Assembly (NCBI RefSeq): GCF_054482525.1
Contig: NZ_CM137006.1
Reading direction: 5' to 3' (one strand)
Length of the DNA: 64,000 nucleotides
Of the stretch, positions 3,732 to 9,619 are shown in pieces; position 1 is the stretch's first letter; every line of letters starts with the position of its first letter. The notes under the pieces are model-generated. The model worked only from the letters and a program-made list of their open reading frames with translations, was not told the DNA's origin and ran no database searches. The position numbers were made by a program, and so were the translations under genes.

Positions 3732-3782
3732 AGGCTTTATCTCACAGCAGTAAATTAAAATTTTTGCGTTTTAACCCTTCAC

Positions 3783-4005
3783 CTGTTCACCTTTTGATAT
3801 TTTATCTTTTAATTCATAATGTTAAGGGGTGAACAGTTTCACAAAAACTATTCACCAACTGTTCACCACTGTTCACCCTTGAAGCTCAATAAACAATCAA
3901 AAAGGTGAACAGTGAATAGTTTGGTGAACAGTTCATAAATAACTGTTCACCCTATAACATACTGATACAAAAGATATTTATGACAGGGTGAACAGTGGTG
4001 AACAG
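3783..4005. repeat. Iteron array, putative satellite origin of replication
   Basis: Nine copies of GGTGAACAG or its complement CTGTTCACC at 3783, 3828, 3859, 3869, 3904, 3923, 3943, 3987 and 3997, separated by AT-rich spacers, immediately 3' of the replication-protein gene. Confidence 0.7.
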
Positions 4006-4018
4006 TTATTCCATAAGT

Positions 4019-5851
4019 TTAATTTTTGCTATCGTCATTAGTGACCGATACACATGATGGCATCCAGTCTTCTGATTCCTCCGTCAGTGTCACGTTTGAA
4101 CGCAAACCGTGCTTCGTTTTCCGTTTCATATACTCCCTGCCATATTCCGCCATTGCCCCCGGCATATCTTTACCGAAGCGCGTCAGTGTTACAGGTTTAC
4201 CAAACCCATGTGCCCTCATATAAGCCAGATAGGCATGATAGAGATACCTGCGTGGGCTGAATGGCACAATTTCAGCATTACCCACTAACAGGCCATCACA
4301 CATTACCGACGCCATGAGATAGCCGCAGAAGTCCACCAGCGAATCACCTTCACGCTTTATCGCGAGTGCTTCTTCTGATTTCTGCTGCTCATATAAAAGG
4401 CGTCTGGCTTCGTCCTGGTCAGCAAACCGTGTAAGCAGATGGCGAATCACTACCGCCAGCTCACCTTCTATTTTTTCCGCCAGCATTGGATCACGTTCGT
4501 TCTCCGGTACAACTTCCGAAAAATTGAATATCACCCGACGACGTGAGATCCCCCCGCTGCGGTCACTGAATGACATGGCGTTATTGTTAACCGCCAGCAC
4601 TACTGCCGGAATACGCGTTGAGTAGGGGGCTTTGTGTTTCGGGTCAATTGCCACCTTGTCACCGCCTGTAATAGCCTTAATCCCTGCCCCATCACCAGCG
4701 TAGCGGGTCATATCCGGCATGATAATCAGCGAAAAGCCAACCACTAACGCGCGTTCCCTTGCATCTTCCAGCGCCTTCATGCTTGCCGATACTGTGTTGG
4801 CCTTACCCGCCAGCATGGTGCAAATCTCCGCCATCACGCTTTTACCACTTCCCCCTGGACCTGTTACCTCAATGAATAACTGCCAGTCGTACCGGTTCGC
4901 CAGCACCATGAATAATGCAGCCAGTACGCGATCCGCCTTGCGGTCATTCTCAGCCACCGAACGGCGTAACCACTTCCAGAAATTCGGCGCATGTGTTGCC
5001 AGCGTTTCCCCCTCTGCTGGTGGGCTGAAAGGTAATTCACTGGCAATTAACAACCAGTCGTTTTTGTTATGCTCCCGAAAATTACCTGTTCTGGTATCAA
5101 ATACCCCGTTACTGAATCCAATCAGGTTACGGGCTGTATTCCCCATTACAGGCAAACTTAACTTCATGGTATCGACCGCCGATTTAATGGCGTTCTGCGA
5201 ATAGCTGATCTCCGCATCAATGAAAATCTGTGCCATAGCTCGCTGTAATTCTTTATCCTGTACTGGCTCCCATACAACGCCGTTGTAATGGTGAACAGTG
5301 TCAGAGTCAGCATGAATCGCCAGTTCACCGCCATAATGTGCCAGGAGAACTTCGCCGCGTTGACTTGCTCCCATCTGGTTAAGCGCCAGTGATGAAGCGT
5401 TATCGTCTTTTACCCGCTCTTTTTTCTTTACAGGCAGTTCAACTACCTTTTTCTTTTCCGCCAGCTCTGCCCGTTCACGTTCCAGATATTCGCGCCAGTT
5501 CTCCCGTTTCTGGCTGTGCATTCCTTCAGGGTAATAATCAGCATCCCTGACACCTGCCGCTGCCAGTTTCTGCCCGATGGTATTAACAAGCCCCGGACGC
5601 AATAACCCCGCCTGATAGAGACGCACGCGATAGCGTCCGTCCGGTACGATTTGCAGGTTGTCCAGTTCGGCAAGTTGTTGCTCTCCAAGCCAGACAGGTG
5701 GCACGTTATCGCCAGCCAGTCGCCCGTCCTGTTCCTGCCACTGATTCGCATGTGCCCACGCATCACTACCCGCAAAAATGATGACTTCCGTCATTTTGTC
5801 ACGCGGCTGGTGTTTTAAATTTGGCGCTTTTTTCATTTCTGCTCTCTCCAC
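4019..5851 (-). CDS. Replication initiator, P4 alpha-like primase/helicase family (D5_N plus SF3 NTPase)
   Basis: 610 aa with Walker A GPGGSGKS and the general architecture of phage/plasmid primase P4-family C-terminal domains. Sits next to the iteron array. Confidence 0.7.
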   Translation of the reverse strand: MERAEMKKAPNLKHQPRDKMTEVIIFAGSDAWAHANQWQEQDGRLAGDNVPPVWLGEQQLAELDNLQIVPDGRYRVRLYQAGLLRPGLVNTIGQKLAAAGVRDADYYPEGMHSQKRENWREYLERERAELAEKKKVVELPVKKKERVKDDNASSLALNQMGASQRGEVLLAHYGGELAIHADSDTVHHYNGVVWEPVQDKELQRAMAQIFIDAEISYSQNAIKSAVDTMKLSLPVMGNTARNLIGFSNGVFDTRTGNFREHNKNDWLLIASELPFSPPAEGETLATHAPNFWKWLRRSVAENDRKADRVLAALFMVLANRYDWQLFIEVTGPGGSGKSVMAEICTMLAGKANTVSASMKALEDARERALVVGFSLIIMPDMTRYAGDGAGIKAITGGDKVAIDPKHKAPYSTRIPAVVLAVNNNAMSFSDRSGGISRRRVIFNFSEVVPENERDPMLAEKIEGELAVVIRHLLTRFADQDEARRLLYEQQKSEEALAIKREGDSLVDFCGYLMASVMCDGLLVGNAEIVPFSPRRYLYHAYLAYMRAHGFGKPVTLTRFGKDMPGAMAEYGREYMKRKTKHGLRSNVTLTEESEDWMPSCVSVTNDDSKN

Positions 5852-6451: not shown

Positions 6452-6991
6452 TCAGGCATGGCACACCCCCTGGCGAATACGGGCGGCGAATACAGCAACA
6501 CAACCGGACGGGCAGCGGTTACGCGCTTCACGTTCCGTCCAGGCGGTGACGTGGATGATTTGATGGTCTGACGCGCCAAAGATGATAAAGCGCCAGAGAA
6601 AGGCGGTTTGAGAATGTACAAGGGTAGGGATAGTAGCCATGTTGGCAGCCTCCTTTGACAGTGAAGAATTTCCACCGCAGGAAACGCCAATTTCGCTGGC
6701 GGTGGACTGAACGGGGTTGGCGTAACCGGCGTCAAAGGGAACCGGCGCTTCCGAAGAAGCCCCCGCCCAGCCCACCATAACTTTGATGTGAGCGAATGCG
6801 GACGATAAAAAAGACGCTGGCGCGTCATATATCGCCTTTGACATTTCCAGGACGCCAATCCCGGCACCAGATTTTGCTGGTGCGGATAAATCATAGCCCT
6901 GGCTTGCAGTGGCGATCAACTGGTTTTTTACACCCGCTTTATTCAGGTTGTGCGAGTCCCGCCCTTGCGGGTGTGTGGTATGATTTCTCAT
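6452..6991 (-). CDS. Hypothetical protein, first gene of the replication operon
   Basis: 179 aa from ATG at 6991 with GAGG Shine-Dalgarno. This is the 3' part of ORF-track entry 6452..7741, whose upstream part overlaps the operators and the plus-strand regulator gene. Stop overlaps the next start. Ala/Gly/Ser-rich, no recognised motif. Confidence 0.35.
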
Positions 6992-7088
6992 AGCGACCTC
7001 GATACTATCGTTATCGTTGGTGGTTAGAAGCCCCGTTACTGCTCCAACAGTGCGGGGTTTCGTCGTTTCTGCACCTTGCATCAACAAG

Positions 7089-7140
7089 GTGTTGAACACC
7101 AATGTAAACTCAGGTGTTGAACACGTCAAGTGTTGAACAC
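7089..7140. promoter_or_regulatory. Three direct copies of the 11-bp near-palindrome GTGTTGAACAC (operator array) in a divergent promoter region
   Basis: Copies at 7089-7099, 7114-7124 and 7130-7140, between the minus-strand operon start (6991) and the plus-strand small gene (7191). Confidence 0.5.
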
Positions 7141-7190
7141 TTGTTTTTTTTCCTGCATACTGCATTTGTTTTTTGTGAGGGGTACACAAC

Positions 7191-7370
7191 ATGGCGACAA
7201 AAGCAGTAAACGCAAAATCACAAACAGTTGCGGCAAGGGTTCCGCATGAAGTTATGAACAATGTTGAGGCGGTAAAAATGCCTGGTGAAAGTACAGGGCA
7301 ATTTGTAACAGCAGCATTAAAGCGAGAAGTTGAATACCGCCAGCGACGCAAGGCTAAAGAGCAAGAATAA
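7191..7370 (+). CDS. Putative ribbon-helix-helix DNA-binding regulator
   Basis: 59-aa [62 protein letters not shown] found by manual translation; it is below the ORF-track length cutoff. Strand-helix-helix pattern, directly downstream of the operator repeats. Confidence 0.4.
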
Positions 7371-7427
7371 TCACTATCAGCGCTGTGGTGTGAGGTACTC
7401 CGGCGCATTGCTTTACAGGTCGGCACT

Positions 7428-7637
7428 ATGAGCAAAAAATACCTATCCACTGAAGAGATTTTCGCAGAACAACGAAGATTGCTTTTACAGAGCATTGTTG
7501 CACGCCAGAAAGAAAAGGCACACGCTAAACAAATGCCACCAAATACAGAACCAGCGCCTACAAAATTTGCGCTTGATGAGTTTCTCAATAAACAGCCCCG
7601 GGTAATGAAAGCTAACAGGAACCGCCCACCAGGCTGA
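7428..7637 (+). CDS. Small hypothetical protein co-oriented with the RHH gene
   Basis: 69-aa ORF followed by a terminator. Confidence 0.3.
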
Positions 7638-7701
7638 TCACATTGCCCACCAGCCAGCAAATCGCTATGATGGCTGGGCTTATGTTTAGTGTATTCCCAC
7701 T

Positions 7702-7733
7702 GGCGACCTCTGATCCGGGTCGCCTTTGTTTTA
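7702..7733 (+). terminator. Rho-independent terminator, possibly bidirectional between the plus-strand genes and alpA
   Basis: Hairpin GGCGACC-tctgatccg-GGTCGCC followed by TTTGTTTTA. Confidence 0.5.
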
Positions 7734-7751
7734 TGTGTCATATGCCCCCCT

Positions 7752-7961
7752 TTACGCTGCCTTGCCTGAATTAATGCGATCCCGGCTTTTAACCCATTCC
7801 ATAACCTCGGACAGCAGCCAACCTACAGAACGACCGCCCAGATTACGGCGTGACGGGAAATTCCCTTTTTTCTCCAGTTCATAGCGTGTAGTGCGACACA
7901 CTCCAGTTAACTTACGACATTCATCCTCACGGATTACGCGATCTTCATTTATTTCACGCAT
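7752..7961 (-). CDS. alpA: AlpA/Vis-family transcriptional regulator (excision activator)
   Basis: 69 aa. KSVGW...E.EW core motif and size match AlpA of CP4-57 and Vis of P4. Position next to int is typical. Confidence 0.65.
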
Positions 7962-8380
7962 ACAAAAACCTACATAAAAAATTACGTATATAAACTTTTC
8001 TCTTAGCTGTAGATATATGAGATCGGATATTACTTAGATTCTTTTTTCACCTCTTAAATTAAAAACACAACCTTGCTAAAGGCTTTGTTCGCTAAGGTTC
8101 GTAGAAGCTCGTTAGTGTTTAAAATCGTGTCACGAGTTTTTAAGCGATGCAACAAAAAATGTCGTTATTTGGCATTACGCTTGAATTATCTCATTAAAAA
8201 CAAATAGATAAACCATCAAGTGTTGGAACAATCAAGAAACAGAGAATAAAAGTTCAGAAGAAGACATTCCAATTTTTTGATGGTTGACATATATAAAGCG
8301 AAGATATTTGCAGATATTTTCCGATATTCTACGATTTATTCACGGCTGTAATCTCTTAAAGAAAAAACAGCCGTAATTTG

Positions 8381-9619
8381 TCAAGAATTTTGGGTGTAAA
8401 TTCGCGGGGTCATAACAACGATTTTTTTATCATTGTTCTGGAGAAGCTCGAGACGGTCTACCCATAGATTAAGAGCATCACGTTTTGCATCAAGATAACG
8501 GGAGTGGTTATAGACTCGTTGCATCCCCGGCATCTGGTGGGCGGTAAGCTGCTCGACAATATGCGGATCCACGCCTAAATCGTTCAGCATGGTTGTAAAT
8601 GTGTGCCGGATATCGTGTAACGTCCAGGGGGCTTGATTAATTCGTCTGTGCGCTGTTCTTCCGTACTCTGCTACCGAAGATTGTCCTTTCAGTTCACCAA
8701 GCAATAAGCCTGTGTGTCTGTTCTGCTCCACCAGTTGCGTGACGAACGGCAAAATGCTTTCCGGTATTGGCCTGAATATGGCGACCTTCGTTTTGCTGTG
8801 CTCCTTCGGTACTGTCCAGAGCATTTCTTTAAAATCCCACTCCTGCACCTCAGAGCGCCTTAGCTCAGTGGTACGGCATCCAAAAACAATCAGGAGGCGA
8901 ATTAGGGCGCTGTAGTATGGCGGGAATATTTTGTCATCCAGGGCGCGGAGTAATTCCCCAAGCTCCTTATTTGTTAGTACGCGCTCGCTCACTTCTGCTT
9001 TTTTTCCCACATCACCGACAACCATATCATCAAGAACGTTGCTGATTGCGTATCGTCGTTTTCGGCAGTACTTAAGCGCCTGTTTGCATACCTGTAGCAA
9101 AAATCCGGCAGATACTGGGCTTCGCTTTGCCATCTGGTCAAAACATGCCAACCAGTGCCGTAGCTCGCATTTTTCCAACGGCAAAGCGCCAATCTGGCTG
9201 ATTATGTGTTTATTGATCCGGCTTTTCAGTGATTCGTAGTCAGTGCGCTTTTCCTTTGCATACGATTCAAGCCAGTAAGTGAGCGCTTCCTTAACTGTCA
9301 CGGGGGCTAACGCATCCTGTACAGCACGATTAAGCTCATAGCGCGGATTTTTCCCCTCAGCCAGCCAGGCGCGACACTGTGCTGCTTTTTCCCTGGCTGC
9401 TTTCAGGCTCAGATCGGGATAATTGCCCAGTCTCAGACGTTCCGGTGATACCTGCCTACCAGTTCCGGCCCTGTAAGTGAAATACCAGGTTAACAGGCCG
9501 CTGGTGGAATGTCTTACGCTAAGATTGCCACCGTCATTAAAAAAGGCGTTTTTTGTGGTTGGTGATCCGCTTAATTTTCGTAAAAGAGTGTCGCTAAGTC
9601 TATGAATTGCGCTGCTCAT
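8381..9619 (-). CDS. int: Tyrosine site-specific integrase (P4-type)
   Basis: 412 aa. C-terminal catalytic motifs HDIRHTF and RVYNHSRY (tyrosine nucleophile context), N-terminal arm-binding region. Confidence 0.85.
   Translation of the reverse strand: MSSAIHRLSDTLLRKLSGSPTTKNAFFNDGGNLSVRHSTSGLLTWYFTYRAGTGRQVSPERLRLGNYPDLSLKAAREKAAQCRAWLAEGKNPRYELNRAVQDALAPVTVKEALTYWLESYAKEKRTDYESLKSRINKHIISQIGALPLEKCELRHWLACFDQMAKRSPVSAGFLLQVCKQALKYCRKRRYAISNVLDDMVVGDVGKKAEVSERVLTNKELGELLRALDDKIFPPYYSALIRLLIVFGCRTTELRRSEVQEWDFKEMLWTVPKEHSKTKVAIFRPIPESILPFVTQLVEQNRHTGLLLGELKGQSSVAEYGRTAHRRINQAPWTLHDIRHTFTTMLNDLGVDPHIVEQLTAHQMPGMQRVYNHSRYLDAKRDALNLWVDRLELLQNNDKKIVVMTPRIYTQNS

Follow-up and report, generated by a model that had tools for sequence, protein, structure and literature searches.

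Organization of the locus

We analysed a 64,000-nucleotide stretch of DNA (NCBI RefSeq assembly GCF_054482525.1, contig NZ_CM137006.1), here called the window, which carries an island of the phage-inducible chromosomal island (PICI) type inserted between cspD and clpS. Our subject is the region of this island in which a gene for a 59-amino-acid (aa) protein diverges from a leftward operon that leads into replication genes. A first-pass annotation had proposed a genetic switch here, consisting of three palindromic operators in a gap of about 200 bp between the start of the operon and the divergent gene. The features of the region, from left to right, are listed below.

6452–6991, − strand: first leftward open reading frame (ORF), Icd-like, 179 aa, matching NF033153
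6976–7075, + strand: conserved antisense small RNA (predicted), with a −10 element, two hairpins and a T-run terminator
7089–7099: candidate operator O1, an exact copy of GTGTTGAACAC that overlaps the predicted start of the leftward promoter
7101–7129, − strand: P_L, predicted leftward promoter from a promoter scan, with TTGACG (7129–7124), 17 bp and TACATT (7106–7101)
7114–7124: candidate operator O2 (GTGTTGAACAC), occupying the 17-bp −35/−10 spacer of P_L
7130–7140: candidate operator O3 (GTGTTGAACAC), overlapping the −35 (TTGAAC) of the promoter of the 59-aa gene
7133–7161, + strand: P_R, predicted rightward promoter of the 59-aa gene, read from the sequence as TTGAAC (7133–7138), 17 bp and CATACT (7156–7161)
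7191–7370, + strand: 59-aa YlcI/YnfO-family protein, a predicted ribbon–helix–helix (RHH) DNA-binding protein and proposed repressor
7428–7637, + strand: 69-aa accessory ORF of no family, taken as co-transcribed with the 59-aa gene
7702–7734, + strand: intrinsic terminator of the 59-aa/69-aa operon, facing alpA (stem 7702–7724, then TTTGTTTT)
7752–7961, − strand: alpA, matching phrog_2790 'excisionase and transcriptional regulator' (E 2.7e-17)

The repeats that the first-pass annotation placed at 7089, 7114 and 7130 are exact copies of GTGTTGAACAC, a perfect inverted repeat of the form 5+1+5 (GTGTT-G-AACAC), and all three lie between the divergent 59-aa gene and the leftward Icd-like/primase operon. 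An exact search of both strands of the 64-kb window found no further copy. Because an exact 11-mer is expected only about 0.03 times at random in 128 kb (both strands), the occurrence of three copies within 52 bp is not due to chance. The two small ORFs and the + strand terminator that faces alpA are also where the annotation had put them; this terminator has an 8-bp stem with six GC pairs followed by TTTGTTTTAT on the + strand, and no U-run follows the same hairpin on the − strand. The description of the gap itself holds only in part: the three repeats are there, but its left half (about 6991–7072) encodes a conserved structured RNA on the + strand. Similarly, a leftward operon does begin here, but its first ATG is at 6991 rather than 6992 and its first gene is Icd-like, with the primase gene lying further down (4019–5851).

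The positions of the repeats relative to the predicted promoters are informative. O1 lies 1–11 bp downstream of the − strand −10 hexamer (7106–7101) and covers the predicted start of P_L, which is expected near 7094. It corresponds to a conserved 'site A' of related loci, 102 bp upstream of the ATG of the 59-aa gene, and O2 corresponds to 'site B', 77 bp upstream, after which these loci almost always have GTCAA, complementary to the TTGAC of the −35. The position of O3 is common to relatives from Edwardsiella, Klebsiella and Kosakonia, whereas in most other classes the third site lies directly after the −10, 32 bp upstream of the ATG; in either position, on the −35 or after the −10, it would sit on the predicted promoter of the protein itself. 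The −35, the 17-bp spacer and a −10-like hexamer of P_L can also be read by eye in the relatives, which carry TATACT, TATAAT, TACAAT or TATATT at the place of the P_R −10.

With two sites on P_L and one on the promoter of the 59-aa gene, an autoregulated repressor is the best reading of the layout, which has the geometry expected of a protein that closes the divergent operon and limits its own synthesis. As the direction of regulation is inferred, we also considered that the 59-aa protein binds these sites but activates P_L, or that it forms a roadblock or insulator between the two transcription units. Mnt of phage P22 is a precedent for mixed effects, as it represses one promoter and stimulates the divergent one. 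However, one site in the spacer and another at the start point make up a classic repression geometry, and the P_L spacer is 17 bp and not over-long as with the MerR-type activators that bind in the spacer. We therefore regard activation or insulation as unlikely.

A small protein with a predicted ribbon–helix–helix fold

The 59-aa protein matches NF041551 (NCBIfam 'YlcI/YnfO family') over residues 9–50 with 59.7 bits against a cut-off of 30, in agreement with the name given by PGAP, and it is assigned in PHROGs to phrog_949, function unknown. The family is a small one, as a profile search of 1.84 billion proteins recovered 80 representatives of it at 50% identity. No match was obtained with tblastn against 50,697 phage records, and the family is therefore not detectably phage-borne at that sensitivity. 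Literature searches with YlcI, YnfO and DUF3950, and with PICI together with ribbon-helix-helix or repressor, found no functional study.

Because the strand forms only in a dimer, we modelled the protein as a linker-fused dimer. The model folds as an RHH, in which strand–helix–helix protomers intertwine through a two-stranded antiparallel sheet. The strand–helix–helix pattern that had been noted in the ORF is thus borne out by structure prediction, although Pfam gives no RHH family match, and we regard the RHH assignment as well supported by the dimer model. Across 41 homologues, M1, T3, N7, S10, R16, H19, G32, E33, S34, Q37, F38, E46 and R50 are invariant and residues 11–15 are variable; a G-x-S/T/N inter-helix turn is present, comprising the invariant G32, E33 and S34 and a nearly invariant T35.

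A sequence search of the PDB with the 59-aa protein returned only DNA polymerase beta noise, and hhalign gave probabilities of 0.1% against Mnt and 5% against Arc, neither of which is significant. In the weak and non-significant register with Arc, T12, A14 and R16 stand opposite Arc Q9, N11 and R13, which are the base-contacting residues of that repressor. By analogy, such a register would match the variable centre of the site to the variable residues 12 and 14, and its constant flanks to the invariant R16.

As an alternative, the 59-aa and 69-aa genes could form a type II toxin–antitoxin pair, in which the RHH antitoxin would regulate only its own operon and the overlap with P_L would be incidental. 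The 69-aa ORF, however, matched neither toxins nor any other family in Pfam, NCBIfam, PHROGs or PADLOC; Xenorhabdus loci have no second ORF, and that of Klebsiella is unrelated; and two of the three sites are on the divergent promoter, at positions conserved across genera. We consider such a pair quite improbable. Relatives of the 69-aa ORF form only three clusters of close relatives, and the small downstream ORFs of the E. coli islands (window 7428–7637, L050 25243–25416 and L002 4238–4465, the latter two in related loci), none of which falls in a known family, have in common a weak PxxFAL[DE]xFL...R motif and little else.

Repeat type follows the N-terminal strand

Loci that encode homologues of the 59-aa protein occur in at least 10 genera, including E. 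coli, Klebsiella, Xenorhabdus, Pectobacterium and Edwardsiella, and share a conserved order of int, alpA, the convergent 59-aa gene, divergent small ORFs, DUF4222 and a primase or helicase gene. Almost every locus has three copies of an 11-bp motif within the 135 bp upstream of the gene, at −102, −77 and −32 bp from the ATG. At least ten different repeat sequences occur across the related islands. They share the frame GTGT-N4-CAC with a variable centre, and the repeat type tracks residues 10–19 of the protein, that is, the N-terminal strand, each type having its own strand variant. Seven types are given below (strand residues 10–19, repeat, occurrence); there are three additional repeat types.

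SQT[VIL]AARVPH, repeat GTGTTGAACAC: window, Edwardsiella, Kosakonia, Klebsiella, Pectobacterium
S[KR]KLE[AT]RVPH, repeat GTGTCAGCCAC: E. coli, about ten Xenorhabdus species, Pectobacterium
SKRFDVRVPH, repeat GTGTCGGACAC: L016, L035
SQSLKSRVPH and SQALKARVPH, repeat GTGTGG[CT]CCAC: L014, L025, EcCICFT073
SQSVTARIAH, repeat GTGTAAGACAC (one site inverted): L018, L019
SQKLQ[AT]RAPH, repeat GTGGACTCCAC: L029, L042
SQKMSARVPH, repeat CTGGCACCCA: L038, L040, L043

Three natural mosaics separate the repeats from their neighbours. L018, an E. coli island that also occupies the cspD site, matches the window with 100% identity from 7316 rightwards, through the 3′ half of the 59-aa gene, the 69-aa ORF, terminator, alpA and int; its operators and the 5′ half of its 59-aa gene are different. 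L019 has in common with the window the left flank (6858–7058, with an identity of at least 94%) and the end of the gene on the 3′ side; its operators and N terminus are of the L018 type, and its alpA and int are unrelated to those of the window. Finally, L020, from Edwardsiella hoshinae (3743–4192), has only about 450 bp (6933–7382) in common with the window and the rest of its island is unrelated; its operators are of the window type, one copy with one base changed, and its 59-aa protein is identical to that of the E. coli window over 58 residues. From these mosaics it follows that the co-inherited unit comprises the operators and the N-terminal half of the 59-aa protein. The 59-aa gene is the only complete gene inside the co-inherited segment 6933–7382, and alpA, the 69-aa ORF and the replication genes do not travel with the repeat type. 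The switch moves as a cassette from one genus to another.

The same mosaics bear on whether AlpA or another island protein, and not the 59-aa protein, binds the repeats. AlpA is the published master regulator and activates downstream genes (PMC6092414), and its gene is 600 bp away. Yet L018 has identical alpA, int and 69-aa ORF with different repeats, L020 has unrelated alpA and leftward genes with the same repeats, and no other complete gene lies in the segment that is inherited with them. We therefore reject AlpA as the protein that binds the repeats, and binding by any island protein other than the 59-aa protein seems very improbable. Taken with the RHH dimer model and the location of the repeats on both divergent promoters, the covariation of the repeats with the strand, and with nothing else nearby, supports the repressor/operator arrangement that the first-pass annotation had suggested.

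The same module is present in the prototype island EcCICFT073 of strain CFT073 and in an island that lies within the terminase gene of an O157:H7 Stx1 prophage. At least part of 6900–7760 is matched in 1248 of the 5426 complete E. coli genomes, the most widely shared piece of the region being that around 6938–7092.

Two side observations concern altered switches. Two Xenorhabdus budapestensis assemblies, L012 and L013, differ at 3900–4000, where 45 bp between sites B and C are missing from L012. The gap has the appearance of a deletion between two direct copies of GTCAGCCAC, with loss of the P_L −35 and all of P_R, and L012 would be a natural promoter-less variant. L002 and L006 (4466–5125) contain a second, tandem switch remnant with an additional copy of the antisense RNA (4533–4633), the palindrome AATGTGTATATACACATAAACACATT, a different small RHH-like gene (VSTHKNERRGNPPFQFRLDPDLREKMEK...) and then a small ORF with the FAL/FL motif.

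A conserved, predicted antisense RNA opposite the leftward leader

Between the first leftward ATG and O1 lies a + strand element with an extended −10 (TGgTATGAT, 6976–6984), hairpin 1 (6993–7024), hairpin 2 (7027–7061) and a T-run. Hairpin 1 is opposite the Shine–Dalgarno sequence and AUG of the first leftward gene. We aligned 29 loci and scored 22 base pairs: with the + strand as the RNA, 96.5% of cells are paired, and with the − strand, 83.5%. The + strand reading contains 86 G-U cells, versus 4 that would be G-U on the − strand, and because G-U pairs thus favour the + strand, we take the RNA to be read from it. Compensatory changes are present at 15 of the 22 pairs, none of 500 column shuffles reached the observed pairing values, and pairing falls to 36–47% when the partners are slid by 1–3 columns. 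The minimum free energy of the window copy is −33.5 kcal/mol (z −4.6) on the + strand versus −22.8 (z −2.1) on the − strand. All loci have a −10-like hexamer (TATGAT, TAGACT, TATGCT or TATCAT) 7–8 nucleotides (nt) before hairpin 1, and a covariance model, R1, finds one copy per switch (26 hits), always on the strand of the 59-aa gene. Rfam has no family matching this RNA. The element is interpreted as a cis-antisense RNA of about 80 nt (about 6991–7072) against the leader of the leftward mRNA. This candidate RNA is previously undescribed, and we found no description of a module that combines an RHH protein, operators and an antisense RNA in the literature searched.

An optional RNA cassette in the first leftward gene

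Further elements of RNA-based control lie about 200–400 bp further down the same leftward transcript.

6695–6919, − strand: RNA immunity cassette, identified by Rfam, promoter scan and terminator
6919–6890, − strand: cassette promoter TTGATC-18-TATGAT, from the promoter scan
6896–6844, − strand: c4-a1b1 target, Rfam 43.8 bits, just under the gathering score of 46.7
6883–6807, − strand: isrK, Rfam 75.1 bits (gathering score 50), with a terminator at 6826–6813 inside
6782–6695, − strand: C4 antisense RNA, Rfam 82 bits (gathering score 45)

The cassette is an in-frame insert of about 107 residues within the Icd-like ORF. The match of this 179-aa frame to NF033153 (Icd-like) covers residues 131–174 with 56 bits against a cut-off of 25, and the 66-aa Icd-like protein of EcCICFT073 matches residues 1–18 and 126–176 of the window ORF. 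A C4-family RNA, targets upstream and an icd-like frame downstream, the arrangement of P1 c4 and P4 cI, are found in the cassette at 6695–6896 and not in the operator/RHH module. The earlier statement that this is not the cI-RNA immunity of P4 is thus contradicted for the island as a whole by the isrK and C4 matches; the protein/operator module itself is distinct from the cI-RNA mechanism. Because isrK and C4 are on the same leftward transcript, the protein switch is layered on an RNA module of the P1-c4/P4-cI type. This cassette is optional, being absent from EcCICFT073 and from L018, both of which have the RHH/operator/antisense-RNA module. Matches to the C4 and isrK families of Rfam have already been noted in Gram-negative PICIs (PMC10111431).

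Two longer reading frames across the switch were set aside. A 429-aa − strand frame (6452–7741) that would place a gene over the operators was rejected as over-extended. In strain CREC-629, the region of which is identical to the window, PGAP annotates a 246-aa 'Icd-like' coding sequence (L001 7553–8293) that begins at the equivalent of window position 7192, runs across the switch and spans the operators and the antisense RNA; it is probably over-extended too.

A proposed repressor of Gram-negative islands

PICIs move virulence, defence and resistance genes. Control of the Gram-positive islands is understood, with a master repressor that is lifted by a helper-phage protein. For Gram-negative PICIs the global repressor has been called 'unclear', and the difference between the Gram-positive and Gram-negative islands 'a mystery' (PMC6092414). 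We consider it likely that the region described here is an autoregulated RHH repressor/operator switch of a Gram-negative PICI, with RNA brakes on the leftward transcript, and that the 59-aa protein is probably the repressor, so far overlooked, by which these islands stay silent in E. coli and its relatives. Judged from sequence, the switch is real, conserved and modular, of the RHH repressor/operator type and built on an uncharacterised protein family with at least ten specificities, with binding and regulation as predicted steps. The locus tags of the 59-aa gene and the adjacent small gene in CFT073, C_RS30120 and C_RS30800, are of the new style, which suggests that both genes were missing from the first annotation of that strain; this may be why the repressor was overlooked.

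In the proposed mechanism, a dimer of the 59-aa RHH protein would bind the 11-bp GTGT-N4-CAC sites. The variable centre of the site would be read by the variable strand residues (about 11–15, chiefly 12 and 14), and the constant flanks by the invariant N7, S10, R16 and H19 together with K9. Protein on O1, at the start point, and on O2, in the −35/−10 spacer, would shut off the Icd-like/replication operon, as is expected from the place of these two sites on P_L, and protein on O3, over the −35 of its own promoter, would give negative autoregulation. The + strand antisense RNA, if expressed constitutively, would act as a second brake by pairing with the leftward ribosome-binding site. In this island only, the isrK/C4 cassette may provide a third brake of the P1-immI/P4-cI type.

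Repression would be lifted most likely through AlpA, as a helper-induced activator; Fillol-Salom et al. (2018) described AlpA as an activator switched on by the helper phage (PMC6092414). We hypothesize that AlpA-driven read-through or antitermination from alpA bypasses and silences the repressor at once. Such a link is plausible because alpA points through the convergent repressor operon into the leftward operon and there is no obvious terminator on the − strand; the hairpins downstream of alpA have no U-run on the strand of alpA. An AlpA of Pseudomonas has been described as an antiterminator (PMC9998450). Later papers repeat the AlpA model, and one calls the alpA-adjacent gene 'of unknown function'.

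Several observations weigh against this interpretation. Over-expression of AlpA alone, with no helper, induces EcCICFT073 (PMC6092414), and existing data therefore do not strictly require a repressor. In addition to the missing Pfam match, Foldseek with a monomer model of the 59-aa protein gave no RHH match and none with E <1, and the RHH dimer model is an artificial linker fusion in which the dimer is imposed by the fusion. P_R falls below the threshold of the promoter scan, and relatives show little conservation of its −35. The triad is also not universal: in L022 and L023 (3700–4180), where the gene context is different and the strand of the homologue is SQTLAARVPH, the −10 is followed by a single site-like sequence, CTGTCGAACAG, and the antisense RNA is absent; L012 and L039 have lost parts of the switch region; and site A is missing from L031. 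Lastly, every functional step of the mechanism is inferred.

The full combination of claims is correspondingly tentative, and we judge it somewhat short of an even chance. It states that the YlcI-like RHH protein is the missing master repressor of Gram-negative and capsid-forming PICIs, that it has at least ten exchangeable specificities (operators plus N-terminal half) and an antisense RNA partner, and that transcription driven by AlpA silences and bypasses it. If this is true, an autoregulated RHH repressor in the prototype EcCICFT073 would close the gap in our understanding of Gram-negative control, and the islands would offer a set of about ten small orthogonal repressor/operator pairs and a new family of antisense RNAs. 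It would also explain the wide sharing of the ~6938–7092 segment among E. coli genomes.

Relation to known systems

In its logic, the closest known system appears to be the immunity I (immI) region of P22, in which two protein repressors, the RHH proteins Mnt and Arc, and an antisense RNA control ant (PMC2629481). As in that region, a small RHH repressor and the operon under its control would be transcribed divergently from overlapping promoters that stand back to back and carry the operators, and a short antisense RNA, the counterpart of sar, would lie opposite the ribosome site of a gene of the controlled operon; all of these are predicted here. Island relatives also have antirepressor-like genes nearby (Bro-N, KilA-N or AntA). 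In contrast to the P22 system, where Mnt and Arc have one operator each, the island has three 11-bp sites, and its operon has no Arc-like second repressor; sequence homology of the 59-aa protein to either Mnt or Arc is not detectable. The element is furthermore a satellite and not a phage, and the operon under control opens with an Icd-like gene and runs into replication genes.

The P1/P7 immI region (c4-icd-ant) and P4 cI resemble the island in having C4 and isrK/seqA-like RNAs followed by an Icd-like frame. They differ from it in that the RNA cassette is optional here, and the RHH module also occurs in islands without the cassette.

Like Stl of the Staphylococcus aureus pathogenicity islands (SaPIs) and Rpr of Gram-positive PICIs, as described (PMC6092414), the proposed regulator is divergent from the excision–replication operon and next to int. 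Unlike them, it has a 59-aa RHH fold, its gene converges on alpA and does not share the orientation of int, and it is not known to be derepressed by a protein of the helper phage. The annotation had held the protein to be not of the Stl or LexA type, and this is borne out. Stl, for comparison, is a much larger helix-turn-helix protein.

The window protein belongs to the same NCBIfam family, NF041551, as YlcI (DLP12) and YnfO (Qin) of E. coli K-12 and DUF3950. The K-12 proteins are distant from it, with a different N-terminal start and an NFSAWV helix, and their genes lie beside cos and nohD of lambdoid prophages without the three-site triad. Upstream of K-12 ylcI (L051, MG1655, 8252–8834) lie CCACGTCAA and two CATCTAC repeats, and the triad is absent.

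The island and its likely replication origin

In leftward order on the − strand, the island has a tyrosine integrase gene, alpA, the switch, the Icd-like ORF, a DUF4222-type small ORF and genes for a P4-family primase, SSB and a ClpP-protease/major-capsid fusion. The larger of these are as follows.

8381–9619, − strand: tyrosine integrase (int)
4019–5851, − strand: P4-family primase
524–2437, − strand: ClpP-protease/major-capsid fusion

Gene content and position, with int, alpA, primase, origin iterons, a dedicated chromosomal site and no full set of phage genes, identify the element as a Gram-negative PICI or capsid-forming PICI, the left end of which is outside the window. alpA has the orientation of int and the leftward operon and converges on the 59-aa/69-aa operon; its homologues in related loci are annotated with PF05930 (Phage_AlpA). 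PADLOC gave no match to a defence system.

Directly downstream of the primase gene, at 3784–4004, nine copies of GGTGAACAG in both orientations form an array of origin-type iterons. The sequence GGTGAACA(G) occurs nine times in this array versus 2.0 copies expected in the whole window; GGTGAACA is the octamer of the origin iterons of satellite P4. The array is likely to be the replication origin, and PICI origins have been described directly downstream of the primase gene (PMC6092414).

This array bears on a further alternative, that the three repeats of the switch are themselves replication iterons or a cos/pac-like packaging site, with the 59-aa protein an accessory DNA-handling factor. The reverse complement of the operator is one base from the origin iteron (TGTTCAAC versus TGTTCACC), and in K-12 the cos region lies between the divergent genes ylcI and nohD. 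However, the array of the island is at 3784–4004 and differs in sequence, the repeat type does not follow the replication protein, and every class keeps the sites in fixed positions relative to promoter hexamers. The repeats were therefore rejected as origin iterons, and we hold a role in replication or packaging to be highly improbable.

In E. coli O157:H7 ECP19-198, a related island (L052, 5299–14647) is located within the terminase large-subunit gene of an Stx1a prophage. It carries int, alpA, Bro-N, YlcI-like, Icd-like, primase and SSB genes and a ClpP/capsid fusion, and helper-embedded satellites of this kind have been described (PMC10111431).

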